Below are positions 30,896 through 33,800 of a DNA stretch of 64,000 nt, piece after piece. The position numbers and the translations under genes were made by a program. The stretch's first letter is position 1, and each line of letters starts with the position of its first letter. A model generated the notes under the pieces. That model ran no database searches and had not been told where the DNA came from. It saw nothing but the letters and a program-made list of their open reading frames with translations. The DNA is from Candidatus Latescibacterota bacterium (lineage in GTDB: Bacteria; Latescibacterota; UBA2968). Location: positions 3,936,001 through 4,000,000 of the forward strand of contig OZ242311.1 of NCBI GenBank assembly GCA_965207885.1, given 5' to 3'.

Positions 30896-33800
30896 AACCG
30901 GTAACCCTACAAATAACCGACTATACTCATCCGTCAACGGATCGCGCTCGCCCTTTTGCGCTGCGCGGGCAAATACCACACCCGGCTTTTCCGACCTGCG
31001 CGCCCGCGCCAAAACGCCATACCCACCGGGCGCACTTTGCGTTTCCAGATCGCTCTGAATCGCCAGCATCTCCGCCAGCGCATTGGCCAACCCCCAGCGC
31101 GCACCAATCGCCCGCGCAAAAAGCTCCTCTGGCGTCAGCCCCTCCCTAAAACCGTGCTTCAGGGGCGTAAACCCACCCTGATCATTCCGCGTCACGCCCT
31201 GGGGAGCCACATAAAGTCTAACCTGCTGCCAATTGGCACGCGCACCACATTCCACCAGAAGCGCGGGAATCCCGAGATCATCGTCGTCATATCCGCGAAG
31301 CTGTGCCAACACAGCCGACACCTCATCGGGATAATCGCGCCAGACATCTGGGTCATCGCCCTCTGGCGGATCGGGCCAATCGAGCGACGAACCGATAAAC
31401 GCACTCATCGACGCCCCTGTCTTACGCGCGGCATCAAACCCTCTATCCCACAATCGCGCTGCCAGATCCAATGCAGCCTTCGCGCCATCGCGCGCCATTG
31501 CATCCGCCATCCAGTCCATCACCTGATACTTATCGACAAATAATCCCTTTCGCTCAACCTCATCGCCGACAATCTCCGCAATCTCCTGCAACCCCTCGTC
31601 CGTCATACTCATATACGCCAGGCCAAACAGCGCGTCGTGCATCGGGTGTACCTTCTCGCGTGCAATCAGACCCAGATCTCGATTCAGATGCGCCTCAGCC
31701 GACAGATGCGCTTCAGCCGACCGCTGTCCCTCTTCAGTCACCGGCACAAAAATCGCCACCTGATCGCCATCAAAATCCATATTCATCATCTTGCAAATCG
31801 CCACACACACGCGCACAGCATCGCCTTCCACGCGCACCGGACGACACGCCACAAAAGCCATTGGCGAAAACGCGGGATTGCGAAGCACCACAGTCCATAA
31901 CTCAGCCATAGCCGCATCCAGAGCTTTCTCTGCTTTTCTCGACCGCCTATCCACTTCTTCAACTCCCACCTCTCTCGCTGCAAACGGCCCAAACAACGTC
32001 CACGCCATTTCTTCGGGCACACCGACCTGATCGTATCGCAATTCCGGAGCAGGCACAGCCACCGAACGCCCGCTGAACAACGCGCGCGCCTGAAATTGCA
32101 AACGCGACAACTCGCAAAATGCGCGAACCCGCTCAGACAGCGTCTCAACCGCGCGATCCACCAATATATCTGGCGCGCCATTGGCAATCATCTCCTCCAA
32201 GCGGTCATTAGCCTCTCGCAATTCTCGGGGCACATCTCTCCCACTCACATGAGTCAACGAATGCCCCGGTAGCCACGGATGCGGAATCGAACGCGCAAGC
32301 GCGACATCCCCATCGCGTTTCAACGAAAACTCGGTGCCGCGTTCATCCAGTTCAACAGCCACCCCACCCTTCGACAAATGCCCAATTAGCTCATCAAACT
32401 GAGGGGACGGTGCATTAGGAGTAACAGGTCCCGCAACGACGCGGTCAACCAGAGTATCGGCATCATCTCGATCCACTGCGCACGTATTGAATAAATCGTC
32501 AATCACCCCAAAAGCACCTGCTTCTCGCAACGCCAAAAACTCTGTCTCACCCAACCCTTGATCGCGTTGACCCGGCTTTACACCCATGTGAATTTTATCT
32601 GCTGCCAGATGCAACGTGCGCCCCCAATATACCCACCCTACAGTGGTGCGGCGCGGCAGCGTCTCCCCATTCACCGTCAGCGTCTCCATACCATCTTCAG
32701 CCAGCCCATTAGCTCTCAAACGAGCGCGTATCTCATCGTCCTTTGGCGCATTGAGCGCGGGAATAATAACCGGCTCTCCCTCGACCTTTGCAATGCGCCC
32801 GGCCACAGATTCGCGCAACTGTCCAATATTCAACCGCGACGGCAAACCACACACACTCACAATAAGCTCCACAGGCGTGCCATCCGACAGTTTGGGCATC
32901 TGTTCATCTCGCACAATGCGCGACACCACCCCCTTAAAACCGTGTCGATTGCTCAGTTTATCGCCCGGCGCAACGCGATTGGGCAGCATCATTCGGTTCG
33001 CAGCCGATTCGCTGATCACAACTGCATCTTCGTGTGTATCACCATTCCACGCCATAAAGGCGGTCAGCAAATTGTACCCCGTCCAAAAATGCGGATCGCT
33101 CGGTTCACACCCCGTTTGCACCAGCGCGGGTTCCAACTCCAGTATTTTGCCGTCATATTGCGCGTGATACGCGTGCCACACACCCTGCTCATCGCGCTGC
33201 ATATCGGGGCTTGGCGCACCAATCCACTGCCGCATCATATTCACACCCATCAAAACGCGATTGGTGTCATTGTGTTCCAAAAACGGAACCACCGAAGCAC
33301 CTATGCCCAGCCGTTTTTCAGGCGCATCGTCTTCAATAACCAGCTTGCCATCGCGAATAGTCGCTCCCTGAGCCACCTCTAAAATCCGCGCGAGATTCGG
33401 TCCCTCGGGCGTACAATAAGGACACACGCGCCCATCGTGCGACGGATGATAGCAATTTTCTACCCCCTCATCAGCCTCACCGATAATTGGGATCAACGTC
33501 ACCCGCCGCAAATGAACGTACATATCCTGCAAATTGGTCGCCTGCAAATACTGCGATGTCGGTTCCTCCGTAAAAAATGCGTGAATCCAATCTCCCAACG
33601 GCATCCAGGTTTCAACGGCATCTCCCAGCATCTCTGGCATATTTTCCAACCGCTCGGCAATATAATCGCGCAATTGCTCTCCCACACACCGAATCTCAGC
33701 GCGCGCCAAATCCACATCAGTCGGCGCGGGAACCACCGTTCGAAAAAAGCCATCTACCTTAAACCGCCCCCAATCATCGGGCTGAGGAATATTGTTGTAC

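Follow-up and report, generated by a model that had tools for sequence, protein, structure and literature searches.

A single-chain mini RNA polymerase paired with an ECF-type sigma factor in Latescibacterota: a candidate two-protein transcription machine

In this study we describe a mini RNA polymerase that is encoded on the minus strand at 30887..33976 of a 64,000-nucleotide stretch of DNA (the window) from Candidatus Latescibacterota bacterium (GenBank assembly GCA_965207885.1, contig OZ242311.1, positions 3,936,001 to 4,000,000). Its beta and beta' parts are not separate chains but constitute one open frame of 1029 amino acids (aa), in which a reduced beta (aa ~1-540) is fused to a reduced beta' (aa ~540-1029). 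In related genomes, the gene is regularly preceded by a gene for a sigma factor of the extracytoplasmic function (ECF) type. We favor, with slightly more than even credence, the reading that this protein is a sigma-dependent, catalytically competent single-chain polymerase that works with a dedicated ECF-type sigma.

According to this model, bacterial beta and beta' would have given rise to a minimal single-chain enzyme, which kept both catalytic barrels, the fork, the bridge helix, the beta C-terminal clamp piece, and the clamp-helix hairpin but shed the lobe, the flap, the Zn domain, the lid, the rudder, the trigger loop, and the jaw. The polymerase gene and the sigma gene just upstream would form a two-gene module. 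Region 2 of the sigma would dock on the retained hairpin and the two proteins together would initiate at TGAAC-N15-GG(T/C)GTC promoters, at least at their own operon. The domain anatomy, its conservation, the linkage and co-occurrence of the two genes, and the common motif are observed, whereas catalysis, docking of the sigma on the hairpin, and the identity of the core that reads the motif are inferred. An earlier reading of the DNA (the original prediction) had concerned positions 32090-33030, which correspond to aa ~316-630 of the open reading frame (ORF). It had proposed that sigma-binding clamp helices were selectively retained, whereas the beta flap and the Zn-binding domain were deleted.

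Anatomy and conservation of the polymerase

Pfam models of both large polymerase subunits matched the single chain: RNA_pol_Rpb2_3 (aa 142-200), Rpb2_6 (best match at aa 335-464), and Rpb1_2 (best match at aa 698-755). The beta-type barrel with its GDK...RHG.KG motif is present (PF00562, E 3.7e-40), and so is the beta'-type barrel (PF00623, E 2.2e-15) with the counterpart of the metal-binding NADFDGD, which reads NMDFDGD in the window (aa 732-738). The top NCBIfam and PDB matches of the ORF were bacterial beta and beta'. When a family profile of 78 members (A2) was aligned to the subunits of Escherichia coli MG1655, E values of 7e-72 (RpoB) and 1.5e-48 (RpoC) were obtained. AlphaFold2 supplied with the family alignment returned a compact model with a mean predicted local distance difference test score (pLDDT) of 91.8 and a predicted template modeling score of 0.90, and the top Foldseek matches of this model were bacterial and plastid beta and beta' chains. 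Translation probably starts at the ATG of codon 2, since the homologues begin with MSL. Canonical rpoB and rpoC genes (frames of 1269 and 1368 aa) are located about 285 kb away in the same genome and therefore the ORF represents a paralogue and not the housekeeping enzyme.

The profile alignments define which parts of the E. coli subunits have been kept. For beta, these are residues 494-579 (fork, PEGPN), 653-707, 789-822 (EDxxxxSE), 1054-1130 (GDK..RHGNKG), and 1177-1342, that is, through the last residue. For beta', residues 267-515 align as one 113-bit stretch, followed by 590-640 and 719-791 (bridge helix), and a counterpart of 76-131 is only faintly visible (0.6 bits). In contrast, the family profile contains no counterpart of beta ~149-493 (lobe region), of beta 823-1053 (flap), of beta' 1-75 and 132-266, or of any residue beyond beta' 791. 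By E. coli numbering, beta' 1-75 and 132-266 hold the Zn cysteines, the zipper, and the lid, and the approximately 25 residues that are absent after the coiled coil presumably correspond to the rudder.

The N-terminal domain (aa 1-120; 33617..33976, minus strand) is family-specific with a faint likeness to beta 118-148 (-0.7 bits). The catalytic DFDGD of the beta'-type barrel (aa 734-738) is encoded at 31763..31777 (minus strand) and was invariant in 20 of 20 aligned rows; in the 78 rows of the profile, G737 and D738 are invariant and D734, F735, and D736 are kept in at least 90%. The bridge-helix counterpart lies at 31037..31132 (minus strand), where the model shows a helix at aa 949-980 and profile positions 902-972 align to beta' 719-791. 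For the trigger loop and the C-terminal half of beta' (PF04998), there was no Pfam match in the ORF. A second gene for this half was not found either, and PF04998 in this genome matches canonical rpoC only. Therefore, the enzyme is truly reduced and not split into pieces. The last 57 aa (973-1029; 30887-31057, minus strand) did not align to E. coli beta' with the family profile. They are highly conserved, with R991, A992, P998, G999, A1003, A1005, A1006, E1010, and G1024 being invariant in the 78 rows, and by eye, part of this segment may resemble the first trigger-loop helix of beta'.

The central element of the original prediction is a helical hairpin at aa 584-620 (32117..32227, minus strand), the counterpart of the beta' clamp helices or coiled coil (E. 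coli beta' ~267-309). In passages of two papers (PMC11598898, PMC12000874), beta' 260-309 is named as the major sigma-binding coiled coil. Taken alone, the hairpin does not reach significance (phmmer against Mycobacterium tuberculosis beta' 341-383: 4.9 bits, i-Evalue 88). However, profile positions 579-792 align to E. coli beta' 267-515 as one stretch (113.4 bits, E 7e-37), the start of which pairs the coiled-coil string of the original prediction with the E. coli sequence, the canonical beta' of the same genome gives a matching coiled-coil alignment (116.3 bits), and the AlphaFold2 model shows two helices at this site (aa 584-598 and 603-620). The likeness is credible because it is collinear inside the 113-bit alignment and because the segment is modeled as a hairpin; thus, the proposed retention of the coiled coil was borne out. 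A suspicion that post-rudder helices had been mislabeled as the coiled coil was ruled out by the alignment to E. coli numbering. Within the hairpin, P602 is invariant and N590, R592, A601, and L605 are present in at least 90% of the 78 rows. The conserved residues form one face (A589 N590. R592 L593. R595 M596) and the A601-P602 turn, and those kept pair with E. coli N276, R278, L279, R281, L282, and A287-P288.

Ahead of the hairpin, a strand at aa 560-569 (32270..32299, minus strand) is the counterpart of beta' IELASPTAHIWF. The equivalence of LARSIPHPW and IELASPTAHIW that had been proposed was recovered with a weak score (0.6 bits), and all 78 rows have H566, P567, and W568. The Zn-binding cysteines found ahead of this strand in beta' are missing, as originally stated: cysteine occurs in at least half of the 78 rows in five columns only (aa 46, 97, 185, 188, and 728), none of which lies in aa 520-640. 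A second Zn site would fall past beta' 791, where nothing aligns.

The flap was lost at the junction EDAVVISE...GDK (aa 316-340; 32957..33031, minus strand), which takes the place of E. coli beta ~823-1053. Here, profile positions 285-318 match beta 789-822 and positions 322-398 match beta 1054-1130, and in the window protein E323 and G338 are 14 residues apart. From these adjoining matches and this spacing, it follows that some 230 residues of E. coli beta have been replaced by a short linker, which agrees with the flap deletion of the original prediction. G338, D339, R344, G346, and K348 are invariant in the 78 rows, and the motifs GDK..NRHG.KG (338-349) and PEGPN (190-194) as well as E316/D317 are either invariant or kept in at least 90%. 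The mean frequency of the top residue amounted to 0.73 for aa 331-470 and to 0.67 for aa 621-800, compared with 0.63 for the whole protein. The regions that hold these motifs are the best conserved ones, and conservation is higher there than in the hairpin.

These data also bear on the question of whether the ORF might be a decaying, functionless remnant of duplicated rpoBC genes. In favor of this reading, the sigma partner is in part deleted in this genome (see below). However, the polymerase frame is open, its predicted fold is confident, and the gene was found in all 20 other genomes of the genus. Among 8000 candidates scored, there were at least 808 homologues from several phyla, the best 120 of which share the Pfam content and are mostly 1000-1070 aa long. 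We therefore regard decay as hardly credible, and the earlier proposal that the deletions reflect selection rather than decay withstood the analysis. Among the matches listed, the few named ones were called 'hypothetical protein'.

Sigma partner and promoter-like motif

For the analysis of gene context, a pattern scan of one genome per species yielded 194 loci. The best 80 of these were retained for study and originate from records of Latescibacterota, Poribacteria, Gemmatimonadota, Planctomycetota (including Brocadiia), Chloroflexota, and Hydrogenedentota, and many family records stem from sponge or coral samples. Clustering of the ORFs of these loci revealed one near-universal partner, an ECF-type sigma of about 200 aa. 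In 79 of the 80 loci, its gene precedes the polymerase gene in the same orientation at a distance of up to 3 kb, and in 69 the distance is no more than 600 nucleotides, as measured from where the tblastn match ends to the projected start of the polymerase. Many of the pairs have frames that share 4 nucleotides. The sole exception was L058 (= G148), which carries an 89-aa ORF in the place of the sigma. Other neighbors vary by clade and are ordinary metabolic genes (PhyH dioxygenases, GFO/IDH/MocA oxidoreductases, major facilitator superfamily transporters, a short-chain dehydrogenase/reductase). The orthologous sigma comprises regions 2 and 4 (TIGR02937, 122.8 bits at a cut-off of 42.9), and its family invariants fall into region 2.2 (D56, Q59, E60, F62, W66), the linker (P121-x-W123), and region 4.

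In a survey of 168 genomes of the phylum, for which the family-specific N-terminal 135 aa of the polymerase served as probe, the two genes were nearly always either present together or absent together. The polymerase gene was detected in 64 genomes and in none of the 15 genomes of another genus. For the sigma, a cut-off of E <=1e-32 was chosen after paralogues from the window's own genome had been seen at 1.3e-22 or worse, and 63 genomes gave a match. Both genes were present in 62 genomes, the polymerase alone in two (G148, G151), the sigma alone in one (G161), and neither in 103; since these genomes are kin, the counts do not represent independent events. The single sigma-only gene sits at a contig end (position 401). 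The pairing recurs in phyla beyond Latescibacterota. Five genomes of one genus (G164, G169, G170, G171, G155) matched the N-terminal probe weakly (E 1e-10 to 1e-13); their frames are longer (1194-1244 aa), the sigma gene is still adjacent, and this divergent subgroup may be a variant with extra domains.

A gene that follows an ECF sigma gene directly may also encode its antagonist, since anti-sigma genes usually occupy this position. The original prediction had considered such a sigma-sequestering decoy, which would titrate the sigma through the hairpin. It would fit that the polymerase gene lies immediately downstream of the sigma gene and often overlaps it, that the hairpin is retained, and that no other conserved anti-sigma-like neighbor was seen across the clades in the 80 loci. 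A decoy, however, could do without an active site, whereas conservation in this protein is highest in the catalytic motifs, the two barrels, and the bridge helix. Moreover, 1029 aa would be a costly carrier for a hairpin of 37 aa. Given that conservation is stronger in the active site than in the hairpin, we consider the decoy improbable.

Physical interaction of the two proteins was modeled with polymerase aa 121-1029 and aa 10-100 (region 2 only) of the sigma orthologue from locus L006, using alignments built in the present analysis. The interaction prediction score from aligned errors (ipSAE) was 0.55 (runs 0.55, 0.54, and 0.58), whereas the best of three controls reached 0.00. The contacts of the runs agreed to at least 91% and the pLDDT of the partner was at least 83. 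In a benchmark of this score, 116 of 157 solved complexes passed the mark, as did 2 of 215 mismatched pairs, but values up to 0.60 comprised just 18 of the 157 solved complexes and both passing mismatches. A pass in this score range is wrong more often than right unless the guess was likely beforehand, and it may reflect memory here because similar complexes have already been solved. The verdict was weak support.

The loci also share a promoter-like motif. In the window, TGAACC-N14-CGGTGTC precedes the sigma gene at 36339..36364 (minus strand) and resembles the -35 and -10 elements of the ECF type. It lies between the AGGAGG-TTG start of the sigma gene and a terminator-like hairpin with a T run (36364..36394, minus strand), which ends the upstream gene for a 315-aa protein directly before the motif. 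Of the 79 loci, 57 carry GAAC-N16-GTGTC upstream of the sigma, and in 55 of these the spacer measures exactly 16. The other 22 loci carry TGAACC together with GGCGTC, GGAGTC, GTTGTC, or CTTGTC at an unchanged distance. The relaxed form GAAC-N18-GTC was present in 77 of 79 loci, compared with 0-8 for the other spacings tested. In 200 shuffles, which were counted for the N19 form (information content equal to the N18 form), the mean was 0.92 and the maximum was 5 of 79.

Readings of the module and the damaged sigma gene

In a rival reading, the sigma is a regulator only. It would then switch the operon on together with the host core, and the mini-polymerase would act sigma-free, as may be the case for YonO, a polymerase of a Bacillus prophage. 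Structural needs or a different factor would then account for the retention of the hairpin, and the clamp helices are also used by factors of the NusG/Spt5 type. We regard this reading as rather unlikely. ECF sigmas commonly adjoin genes that they control, and a sigma gene beside the polymerase gene fits this habit. The spacing of the motif is canonical for ECF promoters, although the flap, which sets this spacing, is missing from the mini-polymerase. In addition, the hairpin is only moderately conserved, another gene separates sigma and polymerase in the window's genus, and the polymerase is intact here despite a crippled sigma. On the other hand, the sigma orthologue was seen without the polymerase in just 1 of 168 phylum genomes, at the contig end mentioned above. 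The frequent 4-nucleotide overlaps of the frames, the canonical N-RL-R(L/M) face and AP turn kept in the hairpin, and the complex prediction (0.55 vs 0.00, weak support with the reservations given above) also speak against a regulator-only role.

The remnant of the cognate ECF sigma gene extends over 35870..36343 (minus strand), and its likely start is the TTG at 36316, which follows AGGAGG. As assembled, it carries a 147-nucleotide in-frame deletion at ~36266, between short CAAG repeats. Because 49 aa are deleted, the window sigma matches just positions 44-71 of the 71-position region 2 profile. The sigma gene is of full length in all 20 other genomes of the genus, and a second intact copy was not found in the window's own genome. 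The segment is present without the deletion in RNA-library contigs of relatives (record 14 of X2; a loose end in X5). The deletion may be real or it may be an assembly error. If it is real, the loss of regions 2.1-2.2 from the sigma has probably disabled the module in this genome, or the polymerase depends on something other than this sigma. The adjacent ECF sigma of the original prediction thus exists, but in this genome only in crippled form and with an exporter gene intervening.

In metatranscriptome libraries from three studies, labeled coral (X1) and sponge (X2, X3, and X5), there are contigs over the polymerase gene of relatives with 90-99% likeness. Examples are pieces of 2768 nucleotides (X1) and 2421 nucleotides (X2), and one 2421-nucleotide contig spans the 5' end of the polymerase gene and the exporter gene.

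Several observations weigh against a sigma-dependent mini-polymerase and were considered in our estimate. First, the deletion in the window sigma (EAF...SGQ) removes DLTQEVFLRVW and with it regions 2.1-2.2. Second, the hairpin ranks at the 21st percentile of all 37-aa windows for conservation, and outside the conserved face its surface is unlike that of the host's own beta' hairpin. The expected conservation of the coiled-coil surface was hence found for one face but not for the hairpin overall; the divergence from the host beta' would suit a private sigma. Third, the complex prediction reported no interface and so does not place the sigma on the hairpin. The part of the original prediction stating that the protein works with a sigma gained strong and independent support from gene linkage and co-occurrence, whereas binding through region 2 received weak support from the complex prediction with an intact sigma orthologue. 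Fourth, the flap-tip helix positions sigma region 4 for the -35 element, as described in a passage of a published paper (PMC12000874). This tip is gone, yet the motif has ordinary ECF geometry, which also fits recognition by the host core. Either the host core reads the motif promoter or region 4 docks elsewhere on the mini-enzyme.

Fifth, searches for further copies of the motif did not reveal a wider regulon. TGAAC-N15-GGTGTC occurs three times in the window's own genome compared with 0-2 times for other spacings, which is no excess, and TGAAC-N14-CGGTGTC occurs there only once. Five other genomes contained 3-10 motif hits each (0-2 for a reversed-pattern control), and 21 of the 26 hits were inside frames of at least 120 aa. 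A second copy within the 23-kb loci was seen in few of them only, and these copies are unlike the sigma-proximal one. As the six genomes together yielded no other convincing copy, the regulon that can be seen is confined to the module's own operon. Finally, the RNA-library contigs are compatible with expression but are no proof of it, as such libraries may include DNA and give neither transcript starts nor levels.

Neighboring genes, known polymerases, and implications

An ABC exporter gene (transmembrane domain and ATPase) lies between the sigma and polymerase genes at 33989..35851 (minus strand); in this position it is found in the window's genus and close relatives only. Upstream of the sigma, at 36421..38395 (minus strand), there are genes for the 315-aa protein mentioned above, which has no family match, and for a protein of 345 aa whose residues 43-77 form a DksA/TraR C4 zinc finger. 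Their clusters, 4 and 5, were seen in 19 and 17 loci, respectively. The two genes precede the sigma on the same strand in the window's lineage of Latescibacterota and in more distant loci of the phylum such as L025, L026, and L029. As DksA-type fingers bind the secondary channel of RNA polymerase, the two proteins could be accessory factors of the sigma-polymerase module.

Immediately past the polymerase gene lie genes for a BlaI-type repressor and then for a BlaR1/M56 peptidase that is fused to three TonB_C domains (28257-30661, minus strand); these two (clusters 6 and 7) are conserved as a pair in the genus of the window. The frame at 26351-28159 (minus strand) encodes a lipoprotein-like protein of 602 aa that consists almost entirely of HEAT/PBS-lyase repeats. 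Over window positions 1-54000, nearly all long ORFs are on the minus strand and the GC skew is strongly negative everywhere (about -0.1 to -0.3); it becomes slightly positive past ~54 kb. Two ECF sigma matches in the window's own genome score identically (C1:91376-91903 and C1:6198616-6199143). A terminal overlap of the assembly was considered and rejected, since the two ends, when compared directly, share no more than a local duplication (near 80-100 kb and 6.19-6.21 Mb).

A mobile origin of the polymerase was rejected as well. None of the records in the phage and plasmid collections spans at least 80% of the polymerase query. There were 33 matching phage records, and the phage and plasmid matches are canonical rpoB-rpoC with at most 32% identity. 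The best phage matches cover at most 43% of the query (e.g., Vibrio phage D181 with 28% identity over 27%), and PHROGs returned generic beta and beta' families only.

In an ECF holoenzyme, sigma region 2 sits on the beta' clamp helices and region 4 on the tip of the beta flap. The mini-polymerase has the homologous catalytic barrels, fork, bridge helix, and clamp-helix hairpin in common with such an enzyme. Its partner looks like an ordinary ECF sigma, in which both region 2 and region 4 are present, and the motif is of the ECF form. It differs from a bacterial ECF-sigma holoenzyme in that it consists of one 1029-aa chain without lobe, flap, Zn domain, lid, rudder, trigger loop, jaw, and the C-terminal half of beta', and in that it is a paralogue beside normal rpoB and rpoC genes.

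YonO from the Bacillus prophage SPbeta is described as a relative of multisubunit polymerases that consists of one chain of about 100 kDa (PMC5467207). No trigger loop is detectable in it, and the flap, lid, zipper, rudder, and lobe, which the paper treats as regulatory add-ons, are missing; whether YonO requires a factor is left undecided there. To judge from this description, both proteins are stripped single-chain polymerases without flap, lid, rudder, and lobe. YonO, however, is prophage-borne, whereas the mini-polymerase is encoded on the chromosome, resembles beta and beta' much more closely, and is paired with a sigma. A kinship with YonO was rejected: BLASTP gave an E value of 19 and hhalign a probability of 0.3%, with the D.DGD motif alone being aligned.

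Full-length beta-beta' fusions (NCBIfam NF011417 and NF007172; 2839 and 2890 positions) show the same order of beta followed by beta', and their models were the top-scoring ones in NCBIfam. They represent complete housekeeping enzymes, however, and the ORF reached 176 bits at a cut-off of 4632, matching fragments only. The polymerase of yeast linear plasmids is another beta-beta' fusion. In a paper on these cytoplasmic plasmids, their polymerases are characterized as non-canonical two-barrel enzymes of reduced size (PMC6211774). They differ from the mini-polymerase in belonging to a eukaryotic plasmid, in having two subunits, and in using no sigma. In the literature searched, which included the text of the ECF reclassification paper, with subscription journals and supplementary or ECF context tables outside the search, we found no description of the mini-polymerase family. 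The family of mini-polymerase and sigma thus seems to be undescribed.

Textbooks assign one RNA polymerase to each bacterium. The introduction of a paper likewise describes bacteria as having a single RNA polymerase (PMC7671368). By contrast, the mini-polymerase is a chromosomal, vertically kept paralogue, and it is probably the core of a second, two-protein transcription machine in these bacteria. Whether at least six phyla carry such an orthogonal sigma-dependent machine, with a core of ~1030 aa, an ECF-type sigma of ~200 aa, and a promoter of its own but without flap, Zn domain, lid, rudder, trigger loop, alpha, and omega, appears to us evenly balanced. If true, this would be the smallest natural sigma-dependent RNA polymerase. 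A bacterial-type polymerase of two proteins with promoter specificity would also be a candidate orthogonal expression system. An enzyme that has been cut down to its catalytic heart but kept a sigma dock and a private sigma would constitute a natural experiment on the parts needed for sigma-dependent initiation, and it raises the question of whether flap, Zn domain, lid, and trigger loop may be dispensable for this process.

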